Below are positions 3,678-19,444 of a stretch of DNA of 64,000 bases, in pieces (the stretch's first letter is position 1; each line of letters opens with the position of its first letter). Source of the DNA: Escherichia coli (GTDB taxonomy: Bacteria; Pseudomonadota; Gammaproteobacteria; Enterobacterales; Enterobacteriaceae); NCBI RefSeq assembly GCF_003991155.1, contig NZ_CP031293.1; one strand, written 5' to 3'. The notes under the pieces are model-generated. The model had not been told where the DNA came from. It worked only from the letters and a program-made list of their open reading frames with translations, and made no database searches. Both the position numbers and the translations under genes were made by a program.

Positions 3678-4737
3678 GTTACTGCAACAGTTGTGCGAAG
3701 CCAGCGCCGTCAGCGGCGATGAACAGGAAGTTCGCGACATTCTGATAAACACGCTGGAACCCTGCGTGAATGAGATCACCTTCGATGGTCTGGGCAGCTT
3801 TGTTACCCGTAAGGGGAATAAAGGGCCGAAAGTTGCCGTTGTCGGGCATATGGATGAAGTCGGCTTTATGGTCACCCACATCGACGAGAGCGGTTTTCTG
3901 CGTTTTACCACCATTGGCGGCTGGTGGAATCAGTCGATGCTCAATCACCGGGTAACCATACGCACACACAAGGGAGTGAAAATCCCTGGTGTAATTGGCT
4001 CCGTCGCCCCACATGCGTTAACCGAAAAGCAAAAGCAACAACCGCTGTCATTTGATGAAATGTTCATTGATATTGGCGCGAACAGTCGCGAAGAGGTGGA
4101 AAAACGCGGCGTGGAAATTGGCGATTTTATTAGCCCGGAAGCCAATTTTGCCTGCTGGGGCGAAGATAAAGTGGTCGGCAAGGCGCTGGATAACCGCATC
4201 GGCTGCGCAATGATGGTCGAGCTACTACAGACAGTAAATAACCCCGAAATTACGCTTTATGGCGTTGGCAGTGTGGAAGAAGAAGTTGGGCTACGCGGGG
4301 CACAAACCTCGGCTGAACACATTAAACCGGATGTGGTGATCGTGCTGGATACCGCTGTCGCGGGCGATGTTCCAGGCATTGATAACATTAAATATCCGCT
4401 GAAACTGGGCCAGGGGCCGGGGCTGATGCTGTTTGACAAGCGCTACTTCCCCAACCAGAAACTGGTAGCTGCGTTAAAAAACTGTGCCGCACATAACGAT
4501 TTACCGCTGCAATGTTCCACCATGAAAACCGGAGCGACGGATGGCGGGCGCTACAACGTGATGGGCGGCGGGCGTCCAGTTGTCGCGCTGTGTCTGCCAA
4601 CGCGTTATCTGCACGCCAATAGCGGTATGATTTCAAAAGCCGATTACGATGCTCTGCTCACGTTGATAAGGGATTTTCTGACCACCTTAACCGCGGAGAA
4701 AGTCAACGCGTTTAGCCAGTTCCGTCAGGTGAGCTAA
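3667..4737 (+). CDS. frvX: M42-family aminopeptidase/endoglucanase-like protein
   Basis: Track ORF 3661..4737; overlaps the frvB stop; about 356 aa; third gene of the frv operon. Confidence 0.88.
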   Translation: MNIELLQQLCEASAVSGDEQEVRDILINTLEPCVNEITFDGLGSFVTRKGNKGPKVAVVGHMDEVGFMVTHIDESGFLRFTTIGGWWNQSMLNHRVTIRTHKGVKIPGVIGSVAPHALTEKQKQQPLSFDEMFIDIGANSREEVEKRGVEIGDFISPEANFACWGEDKVVGKALDNRIGCAMMVELLQTVNNPEITLYGVGSVEEEVGLRGAQTSAEHIKPDVVIVLDTAVAGDVPGIDNIKYPLKLGQGPGLMLFDKRYFPNQKLVAALKNCAAHNDLPLQCSTMKTGATDGGRYNVMGGGRPVVALCLPTRYLHANSGMISKADYDALLTLIRDFLTTLTAEKVNAFSQFRQVS

Positions 4738-6485
4738 TGCTAAACGAACGCCAGTTAAAGATTGTCGATCTGCTGGAGCAACAGCCGCGCACGCCTGGCG
4801 AGCTGGCGCAACAGACTGGCGTTTCCGGCAGGACCATCCTGCGTGATATTGACTATCTCAACTTTACCCTCAACGGCAAAGCCCGCATCACTACCAGCGG
4901 CAGCGCGGGCTACCAACTGGAAATTTTTGAGCGTCGCAGCTTTTTTCAGTTGCTGCAAAAGCACGATAACGACGATCGGCTGCTGGCGCTGTTATTACTG
5001 AATACTTTCACTCCCCGTGCGCAACTCGCCTCGACGCTTAATTTGCCAGAAACGTGGGTAGCAGAGCGCCTGCCCCGCCTGAAACAGCGCTATGAACGCG
5101 GTTTTTGTCTCGCTAGTCGCCCTGGTTTGGGCCATTTCATTGATGAGACAGAAGAGAAACGCATTATTTTGCTGGCGAATCTTTTACGCAAAGATCCGTT
5201 TTTAATTCCGCTGTCGGGCGTAACACGAGACAATTTTCAACAATTAACCACCGCCTGCGAAAAGCAACGTCGCTGGCCGCTGATGCAAAGCGACTATCTC
5301 TCAAGCCTGATTCTGGCTATTTACGCGTTGCGTAATCAGCTTACTGACACATGGCCTGAATATCCCGGTGACGAGATAAAACAAATCGTTGAACAAAGCG
5401 GCATGTTTCTTGGTGATAACGCTGTAAGAACCCTGACAGGTTTGATAGAGAAACAGCATCAGCAAGCACAGGTAATTTCTGCCGATAATGTGCAGGGGTT
5501 GCTGCAAAGGGTGCCGGGCATCGCGTCATTGAATATTATTGATACGCAGCTGGTTGAGAATATTACCGGGCATTTATTACGTTGCCTTGCCGCACCAGTA
5601 TGGATTGCTGAGCACCGCCAAAGCAGCATGAATAACCTGAAAGTCGCCTGGCCTGCGGCCTTTGATATGAGTCTGCACTTTATTACGCTACTGCGTGAAC
5701 AGCTCGATATTCCCCTTTTCGACAGCGATCTGATCGGCTTGTATTTTGCCTGTGCGCTGGAGCGGCATCAAAACGAACGCCAGCCGATCATTTTGCTCTC
5801 TGATCAGAACGCGATTGCTACTATTAATCAGCTCGCCATTGAGCGCGATGTCCTGAATTGTCGGGTGATTATTGCCCGCAGCGTAAGCGAACTGGTTGCC
5901 ATTCGCGAAGAGATTGAGCCGTTATTGATCATTAATAACAGCCATTATTTACTGGATGACGCGGTCAATAATTGCATCATCGTAAAAAATATCATTACGG
6001 CTGCCGGTATCGAACAAATAAAACATTTTCTGGCGACGGCATTTATTCGCCAGCAACCGGAGCGTTTTTTCTCTGCCCCCGGAAGTTTTCATTATTCGAA
6101 TGTACGCGGTGAAAGCTGGCAACATATTACCCGGCAAATTTGTGCTCAATTAGTCGCACAACACCATATTACCGTCGATGAAGCGCAACGGATCATCGCC
6201 CGCGAAGGCGAAGGTGAAAACCTGATTGTTAATCGCCTCGCCATCCCACATTGCTGGAGCGAACAGGAGCGACGTTTTCGTGGATTTTTTATTACCCTCG
6301 CCCAATCAGTTGAGGTGAATAACGAAGTCATTAACCATGTTTTGATCGCCTGCGCCGCCGCCGATGCGCGTCATGAGCTAAAAATATTTAGCTATCTTGC
6401 CAGCGTATTGTGTCAGCATCCGGCAGAGGTTATTGCCGGGTTAACAGGATATGAGGCATTTATGGAGTTACTTCACAAGGGGTGA
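4737..6485 (+). CDS. frvR: Transcriptional regulator of the frv operon (HTH plus PTS regulatory domains)
   Basis: 582-aa ORF, start overlaps the frvX stop (ATGA-type overlap); N-terminal HTH-like segment. Confidence 0.88.
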   Translation: MLNERQLKIVDLLEQQPRTPGELAQQTGVSGRTILRDIDYLNFTLNGKARITTSGSAGYQLEIFERRSFFQLLQKHDNDDRLLALLLLNTFTPRAQLASTLNLPETWVAERLPRLKQRYERGFCLASRPGLGHFIDETEEKRIILLANLLRKDPFLIPLSGVTRDNFQQLTTACEKQRRWPLMQSDYLSSLILAIYALRNQLTDTWPEYPGDEIKQIVEQSGMFLGDNAVRTLTGLIEKQHQQAQVISADNVQGLLQRVPGIASLNIIDTQLVENITGHLLRCLAAPVWIAEHRQSSMNNLKVAWPAAFDMSLHFITLLREQLDIPLFDSDLIGLYFACALERHQNERQPIILLSDQNAIATINQLAIERDVLNCRVIIARSVSELVAIREEIEPLLIINNSHYLLDDAVNNCIIVKNIITAAGIEQIKHFLATAFIRQQPERFFSAPGSFHYSNVRGESWQHITRQICAQLVAQHHITVDEAQRIIAREGEGENLIVNRLAIPHCWSEQERRFRGFFITLAQSVEVNNEVINHVLIACAAADARHELKIFSYLASVLCQHPAEVIAGLTGYEAFMELLHKG

Positions 6486-6487
6486 AC

Positions 6488-6513
6488 TGTGTCGGATGCG
6501 CCGCATCCGACAC
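6488..6513. terminator. GC-rich palindromic hairpin between convergent frvR and yiiG (bidirectional terminator or REP-like)
   Basis: tgtgtcggatgcg/ccgcatccgacac perfect inverted repeat directly after the frvR stop. Confidence 0.5.
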
Positions 6514-6534
6514 TGCATTTATCATCAAAAACGT

Positions 6535-7590
6535 TTAACGCAGGCGATTATAATCATCGACCATTTCGTTGTACTCGCGTAATGCTCTCGGGAAAGAGTC
6601 TTCGACCATCCAGCTTGAGTTTGCGTCCTGAAGTTGCTCTTTATCCCAGTCAGAGTACGGGACTTTATCTCTGATGCGGCGAACGTATTTTTTAGCCTCG
6701 AGTTGATACTGGCCTGCCGAATTAATAAACGAGAAATTCATGCCGCCTTTATCCGCTTCTTTGGCCTGCGCCACCAGCGTTTCCAGTTCAGAGACTTTCT
6801 TCATTGCCGCATCAACATCAAACTTCTCTTGCGAAATCAGGTTATTAATTTGTTTCGCTGAAATCATGACTGCCAGAGAGTAGTAGTGGAATGTTTTCCC
6901 TTCTCTTTCTTCAATATTTTTCAATTCCGCAAGCTGACGCTTATCATTAATTTCCTGGATCGCCGCATGATAAGATTCGGCTACAGGTTCAAAGGCTTCC
7001 AGATTTTTTAAGAATGTCTGGTGCAGCGTTTTCCCTTTCGCAAAAGCATCGTCTTTATAATTTTCCTGGGTGTAATATTTATCCATTTCGTTAATGGTAT
7101 TACCCAACGCCACGGCAGCATCGATATAACTCACCGCTACGCCATCAATAGGTTGCAGCGCAGGCGTTAACGCCACAGCACTTTTTACGCCTTTTTCACA
7201 CTCAGCGAGGCTGGATTCACTAATGCCGTAGATGCCATAAACAGTACTCTCTTTACCGGTAGGCCCCTGTTTAAAATCTTTCAGCCAGTCAGCATAACGC
7301 GCCAGACTGCGCTGTACCGGGATCTGTAACTTGTTGTAGCACTTGATATAGACATCCATTTTTTCGTCGAAAACCGCTTGTTCATCGACCACCGGTTGGG
7401 CAGGCGTTTCAGGTTTAACTTCTGCTTTTGCAACGGGAGCTTCAGCAGGTTTCGCTTCAGGAGCTGGTGCGGCAGGTTGACTATTGGCAGGCGGGGGCGT
7501 TTCTGTTTCGGCTTTTTTATCATCACAACCCGTGAGACCGAGGGCCATGATGGCGACTATAATAGCGGAAGATAATAAATTCCTTTTCAT
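6535..7590 (-). CDS. yiiG: Lipoprotein of unknown function (DUF3829-like), Pro/Ala/Glu-rich linker after lipobox
   Basis: 351-aa ORF; signal peptide with LTGC lipobox (MKRNLLSSAIIVAIMALGLTGCDD); length matches K-12 yiiG. Confidence 0.85.
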   Translation of the reverse strand: MKRNLLSSAIIVAIMALGLTGCDDKKAETETPPPANSQPAAPAPEAKPAEAPVAKAEVKPETPAQPVVDEQAVFDEKMDVYIKCYNKLQIPVQRSLARYADWLKDFKQGPTGKESTVYGIYGISESSLAECEKGVKSAVALTPALQPIDGVAVSYIDAAVALGNTINEMDKYYTQENYKDDAFAKGKTLHQTFLKNLEAFEPVAESYHAAIQEINDKRQLAELKNIEEREGKTFHYYSLAVMISAKQINNLISQEKFDVDAAMKKVSELETLVAQAKEADKGGMNFSFINSAGQYQLEAKKYVRRIRDKVPYSDWDKEQLQDANSSWMVEDSFPRALREYNEMVDDYNRLR

Positions 7591-7784
7591 TTAATTGCCT
7601 TATAAATATTTAGATAAGAGAGATAATATTTTAAATGAAAAAATGATCCGTCACTATACACATTTTGCTTATAAACAAACCGAAATCATTCACACTCCGA
7701 ATAATTCCTGCGACTTAAAATATAAATCGCAGGAAGCGATTTTAATTACCCGCTCTACCACTGGCGCAGGATATAAACTCTCAC

Positions 7785-10091
7785 CTACATTCCATAACGT
7801 TCAGAAATAGCAGCATGCTTCTCTTCATTCGCCCCGGCTTCTTTGGCAAGACGCCACCAGCACAACGGATGTTCCCAGTCAGCGGTCAATTCGTGCAAGG
7901 TCTTATCGATATCACCTTTAGAAACTGAACGCGGCGCGCTGATAACAAAGTAGAACGCGGGCAGCGGCTGTGCATCTTCTCCCTGCTGGCTGTCCGTTAA
8001 CGTATAGTCCTCGTTACTGTTGCTCCAGTAGTACCAGTTTCGTTCACGGAGCGCCTCACGGAAGGCATTAAACTGTTCTTCACCAGGCATGACACCTTCG
8101 CAGAACCAGGACTCGCCGTACTCAGTCGGGATAATGGTTTGCAGGCAGGCATAAAGTGGCGTGAAATTCTTCCGTTCTTCCTCATCCTCTGGTTGGGTGT
8201 TCAATATTTCCGCATCGAATACCACAACTTCATCAACATGTTGCGGATAATCGGTCCGGTAAGTTGGCTCAATGATCCTTGCTGTTACCGGCCCAATACG
8301 TTGAGCATAGTAATAGCGGTATTCATAATTTTCCCGGAAGCGAATGTTTAGCAGTCCCCATTTTTCGTCGATAAAACCTTCACCTTCCGTAAGTTCGATT
8401 TCCAGTTCAGCTGCAATAGCACGAACCAATTCCCATTGTTGCAGGATGCTGGCGGTCGCCATGATATCCCACTGGATATTACGAATATCTTCTTCACGGC
8501 TAATCATCAGTTGCTGCAATTGTTGTAAATAATCCAGCTGTCGATCCCAGGCTTCCTGTTTTTGTGCTGCCCAGGAGCACATGCGATAAACGCCGATCCA
8601 CTCACGCCCTTTTTCGTTTTGCAGCAACTGGTGCCCAATCGACTCGAGTTCACTCCAGTCTTCCTGTTGGTTGATCACTCGCGCACGGAACCACAAGGCC
8701 ATATGTAGCAGCCCCGCCTGTTCATACTGCTTCGCCAGGTGCTCAATGGTTTGCAGATCGTCACGGTGGAGCAATAAATCCAACAGATCGAAGCAAAGAC
8801 CATTATCTTCCTGGATGTGGCTTTCGACGTAGCGTTGCAGAAGTTCAATCGACTCATCAATCGCATTACAGGCGTTTAACGCATTGACCAGTTTGCCCAG
8901 CAATTCCGCATCATCTGGCGCGTTCAGGTAAGCGCGGCGGAATGTTTCGACGTCTTTTTCTGGATCTGGCTGCGTTTCTTCATCGCTATTTTCAGGTATT
9001 TCTACAACCGGACGAGCAAGCAACTCTGCTTCTTTGGCGGCGATTTTTTCACTCAGTTCGAGAAACTCACGATCAACCCCCAGTAACACGCGTAATTTTG
9101 GCATGTGTCGCTGGGCCAGTTTCATCGCTATTTTGGCAACCCAGACGGATTCACGCTCCAGCGCCAGGGTAATTTGCAGTTTCGCCAGATCAACCACTTT
9201 GCGGTGCGCTCCGGCCTGCGAGCGGTGCTCCAGTATTTTTTGGATGATGCGCGCCAGTTGCCAGTTGTTTCTTTGTGGATGACGGGGAAGTAACACAGTA
9301 ATGATTTTCAGCCATGACCCCCATGAATGGGGAGTCAGATCTGACCAACGCGGTAATTCCTCCCAGACTTCTTCGTCCTGCCCGCATAACGCCATGATGT
9401 ACAGTTTTTTGAGGTGATTACTAATGCGGTCGCGGCCCCAGTAATCATTGGCTTCTGTCAGCTCATCAATCAGTATGCGTGCTTCATCATAACGCTGAAG
9501 TTCAATCAGAATATCGGCACGAGTATAAAGTAATGCATCAATATCATCTTCCCCGGCTGCTTTAACTGCGTCGATTTGTCGATCCAGATAAGCCAGTGCC
9601 TCCTCTATTCTTTTGGAATCTATCAGTGCACTGGCATATTCAGTGGACAAACACTGAAAACAGCTCCAGGTCGGATCAATCCGCGCGATGGTTTCTTCAC
9701 ATACCGCCATACGTTCATTCGCCCAGCCAGGTGCATCAATATTTTCGTAGCAGGCGGATAAATCCTGGGTAACGCAGATAGATTGTGGGCAATCTTTTGT
9801 CTCTTCCCGGTGCGCTTTTTCAAACAGCGCTACCACGTCTGGCAGCACCTTTTCACCTTCTTCATAGTTAGTCAGGCGATGACGCATTTCCCAGTGACCA
9901 ATAAATATTTCCAGCCACGGATTTTTTGCCACCTGGGTAAGTGCTTTTACTTCAGGTAACAGCGAATCGCACTTTTCCATTTGCAGGTGCATAACGCCTT
10001 CCGAATAATCATCGATAAGTTGCGGAATATACTCCTGCCCGGCATCGCGTAACTCCTTAGTATATTTGTGATACCACTCCCATATATCCAT
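7785..10091 (-). CDS. 768-aa alpha-helical, acidic, Trp-rich protein of unknown function; downstream partner of the HtpG paralog
   Basis: Long ORF with E. coli-like composition; its ATG (10091..10089) lies 1 nt after the upstream gene's TAA (10095..10093), indicating translational coupling. No motif recognised by eye. Confidence 0.75.
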   Translation of the reverse strand: MDIWEWYHKYTKELRDAGQEYIPQLIDDYSEGVMHLQMEKCDSLLPEVKALTQVAKNPWLEIFIGHWEMRHRLTNYEEGEKVLPDVVALFEKAHREETKDCPQSICVTQDLSACYENIDAPGWANERMAVCEETIARIDPTWSCFQCLSTEYASALIDSKRIEEALAYLDRQIDAVKAAGEDDIDALLYTRADILIELQRYDEARILIDELTEANDYWGRDRISNHLKKLYIMALCGQDEEVWEELPRWSDLTPHSWGSWLKIITVLLPRHPQRNNWQLARIIQKILEHRSQAGAHRKVVDLAKLQITLALERESVWVAKIAMKLAQRHMPKLRVLLGVDREFLELSEKIAAKEAELLARPVVEIPENSDEETQPDPEKDVETFRRAYLNAPDDAELLGKLVNALNACNAIDESIELLQRYVESHIQEDNGLCFDLLDLLLHRDDLQTIEHLAKQYEQAGLLHMALWFRARVINQQEDWSELESIGHQLLQNEKGREWIGVYRMCSWAAQKQEAWDRQLDYLQQLQQLMISREEDIRNIQWDIMATASILQQWELVRAIAAELEIELTEGEGFIDEKWGLLNIRFRENYEYRYYYAQRIGPVTARIIEPTYRTDYPQHVDEVVVFDAEILNTQPEDEEERKNFTPLYACLQTIIPTEYGESWFCEGVMPGEEQFNAFREALRERNWYYWSNSNEDYTLTDSQQGEDAQPLPAFYFVISAPRSVSKGDIDKTLHELTADWEHPLCWWRLAKEAGANEEKHAAISERYGM

Positions 10092-10092
10092 T

Positions 10093-11928
10093 TTATTTTC
10101 CTTGATTAATTAAGACAGGAATAACCTGAGTAAAATCTTCCAGTGCCTGGTGTAAATCCCAATGCTGTTCTTTATTACCGCTGGAGCACAAAATCACTTT
10201 CAGCGATTTTAATAAGCGTAATGCCGCTGCGGGCTGTTGCTGGTGTTGTAATGCCGTCACCAGTTGCATGATGCAAGGGTTATTAAGGTTGATGTATAAA
10301 CTTGAGGTTTTCGTTTTTTGGATTTGTGAAGTAAATTGCCGCGCCAGCATTAACGCTGCGGTGCTGATGCGTTTATCTGCGTCATCCTGTTCGAGAATTT
10401 GTTTTAATTCTGCTTCGCGGTCTGGCGTAACCACTAACGGTAAAACGGCGGGTTCGAAGCGGGAGATAATTAATTGCTCGCCATCGCAGAGATGCTCTTC
10501 CAGATAAGCTACCTGCTCTTCGGGTAATTCCGCCAGGCTGAACAACTGCTCATTACCTGTTTGCGTACCGACTTCGACAATCCGGCAGTGATATAACAGC
10601 GCCCAGCGACGTAAAAATGGCACGACGGCATAGCGATCGCCACGGGCAACGGGCCGTTGCAGAATGTGGAACAACATCTCTTCAAAACCGCCGTCGCGGC
10701 TTAACAGAATATGAATGCTGTTATTAACGCGTAAATCCTTCGCCAGCAACGCCCCTTTTGACGTTGGCACCTGCAAGCGATCTTTGAGCAAATCAAACAG
10801 ACGGTCATCACATAATGCCGCACCGAGCAACGCTTCGTTGTGGCGCATTAATACACGCCGCCAGATTTCTGGCTGATTTTGTGCGAGATCGGACAAACCA
10901 GAAATCAGCGCCTCTTTTAACGCCTCCTGCACCGCAACCCAGGTTTCGTCCCGCTGGAGATCTTCCCGGCTCGCCGTAGGCGTTAGTTTCGATGACTCAA
11001 TCACGCCGCCAATAAATCCGGCCCAGGGAGGTAACAACTCACGCGCTTCATCATCCAGTAACATACCGCGCAAAAACAGCGACAGGTTGCGGTTATCGCT
11101 GGTGCCGTAGGTTGCGCCATCCTGAATCCATAAAATCCCAACCGCGTCGCTCATCCCCACGGGCACCACCGGAATGGTGCAAATCGGTTCGAAGGAGGAT
11201 TCAAACTGGGCGGCAAAGGCGAGATTTTTACGCTGTACCAGCGCGCGGTGCATGGTTACGCCTTCGGGGGCAACTTCACGCCACGGTGGTTGAAGTTTAT
11301 TTACCGGCTCGCTGGCATCGCCGACATAGACCGGTTCGTGCAGCAATATACAGTAGCGGGAAAGAACGCGGTTCAGCAAATTGTTACTCGCCAGATGGCT
11401 GTACTCTTCTTTGAGCGTCAGAATCACCTGCGTACCCGTTTCCGAGGACTGATGCGGCGTAACGGTATATTTTTGCCCGTCGGTAGAGTGGTATTTCCAG
11501 CTCTGATCCGGCGTTTGCCAGGATGTGGTCAACACCGTGACCTCTTTCGCCAACACAAAGGCCGACAAAAAACCGAGGCCGAACATACCAATTAAACCGG
11601 TGTTGTCATCCTGCTGGCGCAACATTCGGGTATAACCCACGCCTACTGTCGCCAGGAAGCCGTGAATTTCACTTTCTGTCAGTCCAGCGCCAGTATCGCT
11701 AATAGTGATAGTGGACTTCGCCACGTCTGCCACCACACGAATCGCGTTATCCTTTGGCGCATCGGGCTGCTCAATCCTGCGGCGAACGATCGCATCATGG
11801 CCGTTCTGCACCAGCTCGCGCACGGCAACCACGGGAGTGGAGTAAAGATGCTTACTGAGCACCTCAATTAAGCCGTTTAAATTAACTTCTGTAGAATATG
11901 AACTACCAGGTAACTGTAATGTACTCAT
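10093..11928 (-). CDS. HtpG/Hsp90-paralog GHKL (Bergerat-fold) ATPase, 611 aa
   Basis: N-terminal motifs read directly: ELVQNGHDA (N-box, 11791..11817), ISDTGAGL (G1 box), LIGMFGLGFLSAF (G2 box), colinear with the HtpG N-domain (ELISNASDA / ISDNGVGM / LIGQFGVGFYSAF). Confidence 0.8.
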   Translation of the reverse strand: MSTLQLPGSSYSTEVNLNGLIEVLSKHLYSTPVVAVRELVQNGHDAIVRRRIEQPDAPKDNAIRVVADVAKSTITISDTGAGLTESEIHGFLATVGVGYTRMLRQQDDNTGLIGMFGLGFLSAFVLAKEVTVLTTSWQTPDQSWKYHSTDGQKYTVTPHQSSETGTQVILTLKEEYSHLASNNLLNRVLSRYCILLHEPVYVGDASEPVNKLQPPWREVAPEGVTMHRALVQRKNLAFAAQFESSFEPICTIPVVPVGMSDAVGILWIQDGATYGTSDNRNLSLFLRGMLLDDEARELLPPWAGFIGGVIESSKLTPTASREDLQRDETWVAVQEALKEALISGLSDLAQNQPEIWRRVLMRHNEALLGAALCDDRLFDLLKDRLQVPTSKGALLAKDLRVNNSIHILLSRDGGFEEMLFHILQRPVARGDRYAVVPFLRRWALLYHCRIVEVGTQTGNEQLFSLAELPEEQVAYLEEHLCDGEQLIISRFEPAVLPLVVTPDREAELKQILEQDDADKRISTAALMLARQFTSQIQKTKTSSLYINLNNPCIMQLVTALQHQQQPAAALRLLKSLKVILCSSGNKEQHWDLHQALEDFTQVIPVLINQGK

Positions 11929-12237
11929 TTTTCAATACTCATAATCCATCACCTACTATTGAAAATACATCGCTGTTTTTACAACCGGTGCAAGGTTTGT
12001 TATTTCATTCACTCATCGGAAACATTTATTTATTGACGCGATGATTAAAACAAAATGTCTTATATAAATAATGATTAATTCTTAAAGGATTAATGCGACT
12101 GGAGTATATCGATATAACCCGGAGTTAACGAGATAATTTCTTGTGGTGAAATTATTATTTGAATGCTGAATAATATATTGAGGATTATTTAATAGAAAAA
12201 TAAAACCGCAATCCAGAATCAGAATTGCGGTATTTCT

Positions 12238-13074
12238 TTAATTATGAATCAATCGCTGCGGATGAGTATAAACCGTTGCCCGACCCGGTTTACAAAAACC
12301 TACCAGTGTCAGATTACAGCGTTCAGCCACTTCTACAGCAAGTGTGGTCGCGGCAGATACCGCAAACAAAATCTCTACGCCACACATCGCTGACTTTTGC
12401 ACCATTTCATAACTGGCACGGCTGGAAACCAGCACCGCACCTTGCTGCCAGCTTTCCCCTTCTTGTGACCGGCGGCCTAACAGTTTGTCCAGCGCCACAT
12501 GGCGACCCACGTCTTCATGCCCGCCGACCAGTTCGCCAGATGGCAACATCCATGCAGCGGCGTGAGTACAACCAGTCAGTTGCCCCACTGGCTGGAAATC
12601 ATTGAGATGACGTAATGCATCATCCAGTTTGTTGAGATCAAACGTCTGGGTGAATGGCAGCGGCTGCACCGGTTTACCGATGTCATTAAGTTGCTCCACG
12701 CCGCATACGCCACAGCCCGTACGCCCCGCCAGCGCCCGGCGACGTTCCTTCAACCCCATAAAGCGGCGGCTGGAAAGCTCAATTTGAACTTCAAGACCAT
12801 TACAGGAAGGAACGACATCCATGCCAAAGATATCGCGCGGACTTTCGATTATCCCCTCGGAAAGCGAAAAACCGAGCGCAAAGTACTCAAGGTCTTTGGG
12901 CGACGCCATCATCACCACATGCGAAATGCCGTTGTAGACCAGCGCAACGGGAACCTCTTCCGCCACCTCATCTAACCGTGGGTGTTGTAAATCATCACGC
13001 CGCCATAACTCAATTTGACGAACACCTGTGATATTTGTCACATTTTCGATTTCTTTTTGCTGTGTTTTTTTCAC
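12238..13074 (-). CDS. fdhD: Formate dehydrogenase sulfurtransferase/accessory protein
   Basis: 278-aa ORF divergent from fdoG; conserved GCGVCG cysteine motif; position as in the fdo locus. Confidence 0.9.
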
Positions 13075-18827: not shown

Positions 18828-19208
18828 TTACAGCTCATAGGGTGTGACGACACCTGCTATTCCCGCAAAATCTCTCGTATTTCGCGTTACCAGTTCAAAG
18901 CCATAAATCTGTGCTGTTGCCAGAATAATGGCATCTGGAAGTTTCATTCTATACTCCTGCCTTAAAGCAACGCTTCGTTCCGCGATATCCTGCGAAATCC
19001 CAATAACGTTAAACGCACTCATTGCAATCCGTGTGCGATGTTCTTGATCATATTTTTTTGCGCCAACCAGCACCTCCATCCATGTGACCAGACTAATCGC
19101 ATTCTGTAGGGGCCATGCCTCCAGAGCCTGTTTTGCCTCAATTCGTCCGCTGAACAAATCGATAAGGATATTGGTATCAAAAAGCGCAGTTCTTTTTGCC
19201 ATTACCAT
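18828..19208 (-). CDS. vapC: PIN-domain ribonuclease toxin, VapC-like
   Basis: 126 aa; N-terminal DTNILID acidic motif typical of PIN/VapC; start overlaps the stop of the upstream RHH gene (ATGGTAA). Confidence 0.75.
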
Positions 19209-19444
19209 TCCTCACGCAGCTTACGCTGATATTCGACACCATCTTCCTCACACCCTTGCCAGATACCAAAAGCACTGGATATTGTCGTTTTCGATTGATT
19301 TTCCAGATATTGATCTACAGCTTCTCGTAATAGCTCTGCGCGAGGAAGATTGCGCTGCACTTTGAGATCATCAAGTCGCTTAATCACCTCATCGGATAAA
19401 TCGAGTAAAATTCTGCCCATATCCATACCTGCCATAGCGCTCAT
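19202..19444 (-). CDS. Ribbon-helix-helix (CopG-like) antitoxin, VapB-like; YiiF-like
   Basis: Start chosen at the ATG preceded by GGAGG ([24 protein letters not shown]...); track ORF extends to 19498. N-terminal beta-strand and helices typical of RHH; stop overlaps vapC start. Confidence 0.65.

Follow-up and report, generated by a model that had tools for sequence, protein, structure and literature searches.

A non-HtpG Hsp90 paralog and a large predicted tetratricopeptide-repeat protein form a conserved gene pair in Escherichia coli and distant bacteria

Here we describe two genes lying between fdhD and yiiG in a 64,000-nucleotide stretch of Escherichia coli DNA (contig NZ_CP031293.1), which was analysed as a whole and is referred to below as the window. 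The first gene encodes a 611-residue protein that belongs, by its sequence, to the Hsp90 family (hereafter the paralog), and the second a 768-residue protein (hereafter the partner) that is modelled as a tetratricopeptide-repeat (TPR) solenoid. Searches starting from either gene recovered the other one next to it in several bacterial phyla, with a single exception on the partner side. Our reading, held with moderate confidence, is that the locus would be a self-contained chaperone-type machine made of an Hsp90 paralog and its dedicated TPR co-chaperone or adaptor. An earlier reading of this DNA from its letters alone (the sequence-only reading) had proposed an uncharacterised stress or anti-phage module; it is the stress half of that proposal, in a co-chaperone form, that we favour.

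Results

The 611-residue protein is an Hsp90-family member distinct from HtpG

Sequence comparison identified the paralog as a true member of the Hsp90 family, more than merely a GHKL protein. Against NCBIfam it matched PRK14083 'HSP90 family protein' (1e-85, 288 bits against a curated cut-off of 455) and HtpG PRK05218 (equivalog NF003555; 4e-58, 197 bits against a cut-off of 371). As both scores fall under the curated equivalog cut-offs, the protein represents a distinct subfamily and no HtpG orthologue. Pfam returned HATPase_c_3 (3e-9) and, over residues 274-353, HSP90 (1e-7), while the best PDB sequence matches were TRAP1 and HtpG (5e-30, residues 10-359).

The paralog was then aligned with K-12 HtpG and 16 orthologues from other phyla (18 sequences). 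The sequence-only reading had described an intact Bergerat ATP-binding fold colinear with the HtpG N-domain, and its motifs are indeed preserved on proper alignment. The first motif reads R37-E38-L-V-Q-N42-G-H-D45, with E38 and N42 aligned with E34 and N38 of HtpG, and the second and third (I-S-D78-T-G80-A-G82 and G114-M-F-G117-L-G119-F) follow K-12 HtpG column for column. The ATP-site residues E38, N42, D78, G80/G82 and G114/G117/G119 are invariant in the 18 sequences. The catalytic loop of the Hsp90 middle domain (T-A-S-R321-E-D-L-Q325) is likewise aligned and invariant, R321 and Q325 corresponding to human R400 and Q404, and the loop as a whole to N-V-S-R-E-I-L-Q in HtpG. These residues match those required for ATP binding and hydrolysis according to Chen et al. 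(PMC1525184). With all catalytic residues present, the paralog is predicted to be ATPase-competent.

Residues ~10-360 comprise the Bergerat N-domain and the beginning of the Hsp90 middle domain, its catalytic Arg/Gln loop included. The C-terminal half (~360-611) is family-specific, and the alignment showed its last ~250 residues to be highly conserved within the family. Residues 355-611 matched no PDB chain in sequence or profile searches, and hhalign gave a probability of 0.2% for a relationship between this half and the C-terminal half of HtpG; the PRK14083 model nonetheless aligns through residue 571. The C-termini of the 18 family members are variable and non-acidic (e.g. ...VLINQGK, ...RLLGQ and ...QLLAR), with no MEEVD-like peptide among them. 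Residues 127-558 also matched phrog_32952, an unannotated PHROG family (1.4e-19); this match notwithstanding, the GenBank phage collection holds no genuine phage genome with a close homologue of the paralog.

Taken together, the paralog resembles HtpG and TRAP1 in its catalytic Glu, Mg-binding Asn, adenine-binding Asp, glycine-rich lid and S-R-E-x-L-Q middle-domain loop, as well as in length (611 versus 624 residues). It differs from both in that the similarity is low and confined to residues 10-359, and from HtpG in its score below the HtpG cut-off, in being shorter at several variable loops of the alignment and in a C-terminal region of ~250 residues that is not detectably similar. E. coli has a normal htpG gene, with which the paralog coexists.

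The partner is predicted to be a two-lobed TPR protein with an invariant cysteine cluster

The sequence-only reading had seen in the partner an acidic, Trp-rich, helical protein with a cysteine cluster near its N-terminus, and each of these features stood up. The protein has a pI of 4.7 (142 D+E versus 81 K+R) and contains 27 W (3.5%) and 14 Cys. An AlphaFold2 model built on 47 homologues had a mean predicted local distance difference test score (pLDDT) of 92.4 and contained a helical-repeat lobe (residues 3-359), a linker (360-376), a second helical lobe (377-562) and an alpha/beta domain (579-768). On this model the partner is predicted to be a ~90-kDa two-lobed TPR solenoid with a C-terminal alpha/beta domain.

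Pfam gave weak TPR matches only, and no family was found for the partner in NCBIfam, PADLOC or PHROG. The profile of the partner family matched engineered or consensus TPR proteins (3.7e-39 to 2.7e-20 for the whole chain) and, more weakly, the TPRs of OGT, SRP72 and Cdc23. Since the best-matched stretches all lie within residues 376-545, the second lobe corresponds to a canonical TPR array. A Foldseek search with the whole model returned generic TPR scaffolds (IFT-A, Ski3, Ctr9, APC/C and OGT) with TM-scores of at most 0.3. We looked in these profile and structure matches for a likeness of the TPR lobes to any particular co-chaperone, but the matches were generic and uninformative.

The alpha/beta domain contains a conserved acidic loop, PEDEEER, and the near-invariant residues R598, Q617, D626, Y696 and H759. 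Among the AFDB50 matches listed for this domain, 50 of 50 were proteins or fragments of the same family, suggesting that it is a family-specific module without enzymatic signature.

The cysteines of the first lobe follow the pattern C101-x4-C106...C114...C144-x2-C147. Their conservation goes beyond chance: C101, C106, C144 and C147 are invariant in 47 of 47 homologues, with C114 present in 44 and C131 in 28. H66, D110, D119, E133 and E151, which lie in or near the same stretch, are invariant too. We infer that the cluster may bind a metal or be redox-active.

The two genes are linked across bacterial phyla

In an exhaustive profile search the partner family came to 604 clusters (50% identity) at E<=1e-30; almost every one of the 150 best clusters listed was full-length (~730-800 residues). 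A species scan using one genome per species yielded 201 matching stretches, 80 of which were kept. These came from Escherichia, Superficieibacter, Phytobacter, Kosakonia, Budvicia and Thorsellia, from Xanthomonas, Stenotrophomonas, Lysobacter, P. aeruginosa, Psychrobacter and Wohlfahrtiimonas, from Azovibrio, Azoarcus, Duganella, Variovorax and an alphaproteobacterial metagenome-assembled genome (MAG), and from Holophaga (Acidobacteria), a Chloroflexi MAG and Streptomyces. Wherever a partner locus had upstream sequence, the paralog gene lay directly upstream in the same orientation; Thorsellia was the one exception. The Thorsellia anophelis homologue (4755-7061 of its locus) was the sole one found without an adjacent paralog: the open reading frames (ORFs) upstream of it (520 and 148 residues) show no detectable relation to the paralog, as tblastn of the locus and BLASTP of the 520-residue ORF were both blank.

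The reverse search, made with the family-specific C-terminal region of the paralog, found the partner downstream in 77 of 77 examinable metagenomic loci, three further loci having been excluded for too little downstream sequence. In one of these 77 loci ~2.7 kb (~4015-6740 of its contig) separates the two genes, which suggests an inserted gene or element. According to gene-call tables, the genes overlap or are 8-36 nt apart in most loci, with 129 nt in one. Pairing in testable loci spans Proteobacteria, Acidobacteria, Chloroflexi and Actinobacteria, and the pair also occurs in Myxococcota; across phyla the paralog, at 50-63% identity, is much better conserved than the partner, at 30-41%. Clustering of all flanking ORFs from 31 genera or lineages revealed no third conserved gene accompanying the pair. 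Judged by this two-way linkage, the paralog and the partner are an obligate pair, which bears out the sequence-only reading of an Hsp90-like ATPase with an obligate partner. HtpG has no such fixed genetic partner.

The pair appears to be present in Pseudomonas aeruginosa as PA1068-PA1069

In P. aeruginosa, PA1068 ('hsp90 family') and PA1069 (hypothetical) appear to be the same gene pair, the paralog being 57-58% and the partner 40-41% identical to the window proteins. A LysR-type regulator gene borders the pair on one side and an ABC-transporter operon on the other, with genes of the flagellar rod farther on; we take these neighbours to be the braG-braC branched-chain amino-acid transporter and flgBCD, in agreement with the PA1067-PA1079 part of the PAO1 map. 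The P. aeruginosa protein falls in a partner cluster of 2,871 members, suggesting that the pair is core in that species, in contrast to its rarity in E. coli.

PA1069 was described in 2014 as apparently operonic with an Hsp90 gene (PMC4053335). Its product was detected in the proteomes of surface-attached P. aeruginosa (PMC5541441), was reduced or not detected in efhP mutants at high Ca2+ (PMC4053335), and was recovered in a BatR pull-down (PMC13411936). PA1069 is also among the AmrZ-bound, AmrZ-regulated genes, and its mRNA was down ~4-fold at 46 C (PMC4957987). A literature search found no functional study of either gene or of their pairing, PA1069 otherwise appearing in omics tables only, so the pair is uncharacterised, as the sequence-only reading had supposed.

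Layout of the locus

Both genes are intact and lie on the minus strand between fdhD and yiiG (Table 1). E. coli 2016C-3878 (NZ_CP029747.1) matches the window at 100% identity and supplied the RefSeq product names. The sequence-only reading had placed two co-directional ORFs here, one nucleotide apart and preceded by an AT-rich region, and the ORF list and the junction agree with it to the nucleotide, as the base composition does with the AT-rich upstream region. The junction reads AAT CAA GGA AAA TAA a ATG GAT ATA, with one base between stop and start, and an AGGA Shine-Dalgarno sequence lies inside the 3' end of the paralog gene; translation of the two genes is probably coupled. The GC fraction is 0.36 in window positions 11750-12249, compared with ~0.50-0.55 in the flanks.

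Table 1. Features of the paralog-partner locus (positions in the window)
Feature	Position	Strand	Basis or remark
611-residue Hsp90-family paralog ATPase gene	10093..11928	-	RefSeq WP_000105770.1 'ATP-binding protein'
768-residue partner gene	7785..10091	-	RefSeq WP_000355937.1 'hypothetical protein'
Partner, canonical TPR array (residues ~377-562)	8406..8963	-	Profile matches; paired helices in model
Partner, family-specific C-terminal alpha/beta domain (residues ~579-768)	7788..8357	-	
Partner, invariant cysteine cluster	9651..9791	-	Homologue alignment
AT-rich leader/promoter region of the operon	11929..12237 (309 bp)	-	Composition; starts just past fdhD stop
fdhD's own terminator hairpin, within operon leader	12205-12231		Terminator scan
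Strong Shine-Dalgarno AGGTGA	11949-11954	-	Read from sequence; 6 nt before 5-codon upstream ORF
Upstream ORF ATG AGT ATT GAA AAA TGA (MSIEK-stop)	11925-11942	-	Read from sequence
Terminator-like hairpin with T-rich tail, 3' of partner gene	7724..7742	-	Terminator scan; end of transcription unit
Hairpin CCTGCGAC...GTCGCAGG adjoining partner-gene terminator	~7700-7730		Kept in K-12-type genomes directly after fdhD
8-bp direct repeat TTTAATTA, yiiG-side border	7741..7748	+	Both flanks aligned with K-12-type empty site
Second TTTAATTA copy, overlapping fdhD stop codon	12236..12243	+	Flank alignment with empty site

With the terminator hairpin of fdhD on one side and a terminator-like hairpin after the partner gene on the other, the unit looks like an independent two-gene operon. 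The leader contained no convincing sigma-70 or sigma-32 consensus promoter (best matches, 8/12 and 9/14). The TGA of the short upstream ORF (uORF) overlaps the annotated ATG of the paralog gene (ATGA), and this annotated start lacks a separate Shine-Dalgarno sequence. The ST131, E. fergusonii, E. marmotae-type and E. whittamii alleles all share exactly this arrangement. The ATG equivalent to the uORF start opens, in K. aerogenes, a full-length ORF of 617 residues. From these comparisons, the Escherichia gene seems to have acquired a frameshift, and the 611-residue protein may be made by termination-reinitiation after the uORF.

Farther away, just beyond fdhE, the window carries a VapC-family toxin gene with a CopG-family regulator (a type II toxin-antitoxin pair) at ~18828-19444 on the minus strand, at coordinates carried over from the RefSeq annotation of 2016C-3878, whose sequence is identical.

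The pair is probably ancestral at the fdhD locus and lost from most E. coli

The pair was found in 254 of 5,426 complete E. coli genomes (4.7%), always as a single chromosomal copy. Compared with the window, 77 alleles were at least 99% identical, 4 were 95-99% identical and 173 were 90-95% identical, most of the last group being one ~91.5% allele, O25b:H4-ST131 strains included. In K-12-type genomes fdhD and yiiG are adjacent, with a gap of 152 bp; the sequence-only reading had taken them to be neighbours in K-12 and considered the pair strain-variable, correctly on both counts.

Its further statement that the pair was 'inserted' between fdhD and yiiG was not supported and is probably wrong. 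The pair adjoins fdhD in E. fergusonii, E. marmotae-type, E. whittamii and other Escherichia, in Superficieibacter and in Klebsiella aerogenes, and likewise in Salmonella Infantis SARB27, between the fdoG-fdhD region and azlD/azlC (paralog with 91% amino-acid identity). The fdhD-adjacent position is fixed in these four enterobacterial genera, in keeping with vertical inheritance on the chromosome. In the K-12-type empty site, the hairpin that follows the partner gene is joined to the fdhD stop at a single copy of TTTAATTA; the occupied site has two copies, with a segment of 4,495 bp between them. These repeats fit a microhomology-mediated deletion, although eight matching bases could also arise by chance in AT-rich DNA. 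Occupancy next to fdhD in other genera, together with the retained hairpin, indicates that this is probably an ancestral enterobacterial locus that was deleted in most E. coli. Insertion of a mobile element was rejected because the same site is occupied in other genera and the borders show the 8-bp direct repeat only; no integrase, transposase, tRNA or inverted repeats were seen at the borders of the pair.

The SARB27 copy resides on a 156-kb chromosomal contig, AFYI01000005.1, that is filed in the phage collection. Its annotation maps several neighbours to LT2 locus tags and the pair to none; the pair may be absent from LT2 and strain-variable in Salmonella too.

To examine selection, the window allele was compared with the ST131, E. 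marmotae-type and E. fergusonii alleles (dS 0.12-0.57). The ratio of nonsynonymous to synonymous divergence (dN/dS) was 0.025-0.047 for the paralog and 0.09-0.12 for the partner, and no internal stops were found. These low values indicate that both genes are kept by strong purifying selection; a pseudogene or relic was rejected, given intact ORFs and a dN/dS of 0.03-0.12. A functional tie to formate dehydrogenase or FdhD was set aside as well, since adjacency to fdhD is limited to the Enterobacteriaceae and the pair has other neighbours elsewhere.

The E. fergusonii paralog gene is 96.9% identical to that of the window in nucleotide sequence, whereas the partner gene is 88.9% identical, and this uneven divergence suggests recombination within the locus. 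We also observed that the ST131 yiiG is only ~84% identical in nucleotides to yiiG of the window (6535-7590) and of K-12-type genomes, the latter two being 97.7% alike, and that ST131 differs from the window by ~10% of amino acids in the partner and ~2% in the paralog. The alleles of the locus look like old, recombining haplotypes.

Discussion

A putative Hsp90-TPR machine

In the mechanism that we envisage, the tight spacing of the genes would lead to roughly stoichiometric production of the two proteins and to a physical complex between them. We picture the partner as a dedicated co-chaperone or adaptor that would use its TPR surfaces and C-terminal domain to recruit or hold a restricted set of clients or to tune the ATPase cycle; remodelling or release of clients would be powered by the ATP hydrolysis of the paralog (E38, R321). 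The Cys4 site could bind zinc in a structural role, or serve as a switch, responsive to redox state or metal, that gates the activity. Given that the paralog has no MEEVD tail, docking would probably occur via its divergent C-terminal half.

By analogy, the pair may work like the eukaryotic Hsp90-TPR co-chaperone system (Hop/Sti1, PP5, FKBP51/52, CHIP, Tom70 and SPAG1) without being a member of it. In both cases an Hsp90-family ATPase is tied to a TPR protein. The differences are that the paralog lacks a MEEVD-type peptide, that the partner in the window is far larger than clamp-type TPR domains and has unrelated extra domains, and that the tie here is genomic, an operon known from genes alone.

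Among bacterial proteins, groups B and C of Hsp90 are described as HtpG paralogs of ancient origin that some bacteria have in addition to group A, with variable regions reported to be shorter in group C than in group A (Chen et al. 2006, PMC1525184; Press et al. 2013, PMC3708813). The paralog also has deletions at several loops relative to HtpG; its membership of group B or C is a lead at most. The passages searched in these two papers mention no conserved partner gene; Press et al. (PMC3708813) state that an obligate co-chaperone of bacterial Hsp90 has yet to be identified, and they explicitly ignored hsp90B/C.

Several points weigh against a chaperone machine of this kind. For every member of the family, interaction, ATPase activity, client and phenotype are predictions only. 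The C-terminal 250 residues of the paralog have no detectable likeness to the Hsp90 dimerisation region, so that dimer formation is putative, and the lack of a conserved MEEVD-like tail makes the eukaryotic mode of TPR docking inapplicable. The decrease in PA1069 mRNA at 46 C, together with the lack of a sigma-32-like promoter, indicates that this is no classical heat-shock operon. Loss of the pair from ~95% of E. coli implies that it is dispensable in that species. Finally, gene adjacency is equally compatible with the partner being a client.

The partner as a possible client or scaffold

This last possibility can be stated as a model in which the partner is the dedicated client or output of the paralog, which would spend ATP on shifting the 90-kDa TPR scaffold from one conformation to another; the switched scaffold would assemble or release other proteins, in a relation comparable to that of Hsp90 with kinases or with NLRs. 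The strict co-inheritance and tight operon spacing would suit such a model, as would the fact that the partner is the larger, faster-evolving protein and holds all the family-specific surfaces. The recovery of PA1069 with an unrelated stress-pathway bait (PMC13411936) suits a scaffold too. However, the compact, well-packed solenoid predicted at a pLDDT of 92 is unlike a metastable client, and there is no conserved output gene downstream. We consider this explanation rather unlikely.

A possible redox- or metal-gated stress system

We regard as distinctly unlikely a redox- or metal-gated stress system in which the Cys4 zinc of the partner would be released upon oxidation or metal stress, turning the TPR protein into a holdase that passes substrates to the ATP-dependent paralog. 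The model draws on the analogy with Hsp33, a redox-regulated protein with a Cys4 zinc centre, since the partner has four invariant cysteines and is genetically tied to a chaperone; the conservation of these cysteines in all 47 homologues, along with that of H66, D110, D119, E133 and E151, and the reported response of PA1069 abundance to high Ca2+ and biofilm growth (PMC4053335) are consistent with it. Yet the partner differs from Hsp33 in fold and size, and its C-x4-C...C-x2-C spacing departs from the Hsp33 motif. A purely structural zinc site would account for the invariance equally well, and no oxidative-stress regulator or promoter was identified.

An improbable anti-phage system

The anti-phage module put forward by the sequence-only reading is highly improbable. 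In such a conflict system the GHKL ATPase would sense infection and the partner would be a sensor or an effector. GHKL ATPases are known in defence systems, and the paralog shares its GHKL ATP-binding fold with Tiamat (TmtA) and MORC-like defence ATPases: in PADLOC-DB v2, its N-terminal ~120 residues weakly matched TmtA models (5.7e-6 at best, up to 1.4e-3, over ~110 residues) and a type II restriction-enzyme model, REase_II, at 4e-3. However, the TmtA matches cover just the generic ATP-binding fold of models of 1,300-1,800 residues, and the paralog differs from TmtA by its Hsp90-specific middle-domain loop, the absence of a defence context and the absence of an effector. The partner gave no PADLOC match of any kind, and sequence and structure searches revealed no nuclease, protease, NADase, pore, toxin or other effector fold.

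The patchy distribution in E. coli (4.7% of genomes), the deeply divergent alleles and the hok/gef toxin genes near the pair in Cronobacter count in favour of this reading. Against it, precomputed Pfam annotations show the neighbours to be housekeeping or metabolic genes (transporters, regulators and enzymes), with no defence genes among them, in eight taxa, namely P. aeruginosa, Xanthomonas, Cronobacter, Escherichia, K. aerogenes, a Rhodocyclaceae MAG and two further lineages, and the position of the locus is fixed across enterobacterial genera. Phages do not carry the pair, and plasmids hardly ever do. Among 50,697 phage records, a protein search returned no genuine phage copy, only generic htpG-like fragments and the misfiled Salmonella contig. 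Of 72,556 plasmid records, 3 matched, and none was a small plasmid of the ordinary kind: one is an 847-kb P. aeruginosa replicon, one an 11.85-Mb Nonomuraea record and one a 29-kb Xanthomonas record. A dN/dS of 0.03-0.12 and a paralog that retains 50-63% identity across phyla are unlike fast-evolving immune genes, and the 2,871-member partner cluster suggests core status in P. aeruginosa. The case illustrates that a GHKL ATPase, an unfamiliar partner and a patchy distribution are insufficient alone to indicate a defence system.

Significance

The co-chaperone reading, which we retain, has a bearing on how bacterial Hsp90 is viewed. Bacterial Hsp90 is usually described as free of co-chaperones, and functional work has neglected the old hsp90B/C lineages (PMC3708813). 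The locus ties an old Hsp90 paralog lineage, across phyla, to a single large TPR protein with invariant cysteines and a C-terminal domain of its own. Tentatively, and with more doubt than conviction, we suggest that the pair may represent the first case of a bacterial Hsp90 with an obligate co-chaperone; the paralog would be active only when complexed with its dedicated TPR protein. If so, the spread over phyla would mean that an Hsp90-TPR partnership either arose independently in bacteria or predates the eukaryotic one. A specialised proteostasis pathway, possibly redox- or metal-gated, would then exist in P. aeruginosa, Xanthomonas, Stenotrophomonas and E. coli ST131.

The finding raises the questions of co-chaperones of bacterial Hsp90, of the role of a non-HtpG Hsp90, and of how a TPR protein engages Hsp90 without MEEVD. 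It also provides chaperone biology with a cloneable two-gene system in tractable hosts (E. coli ST131 and relatives, and P. aeruginosa with PA1068/PA1069). As the pair is found in the pathogens P. aeruginosa, Stenotrophomonas maltophilia, Xanthomonas and ST131, a role in stress tolerance or biofilm growth would have applied interest.

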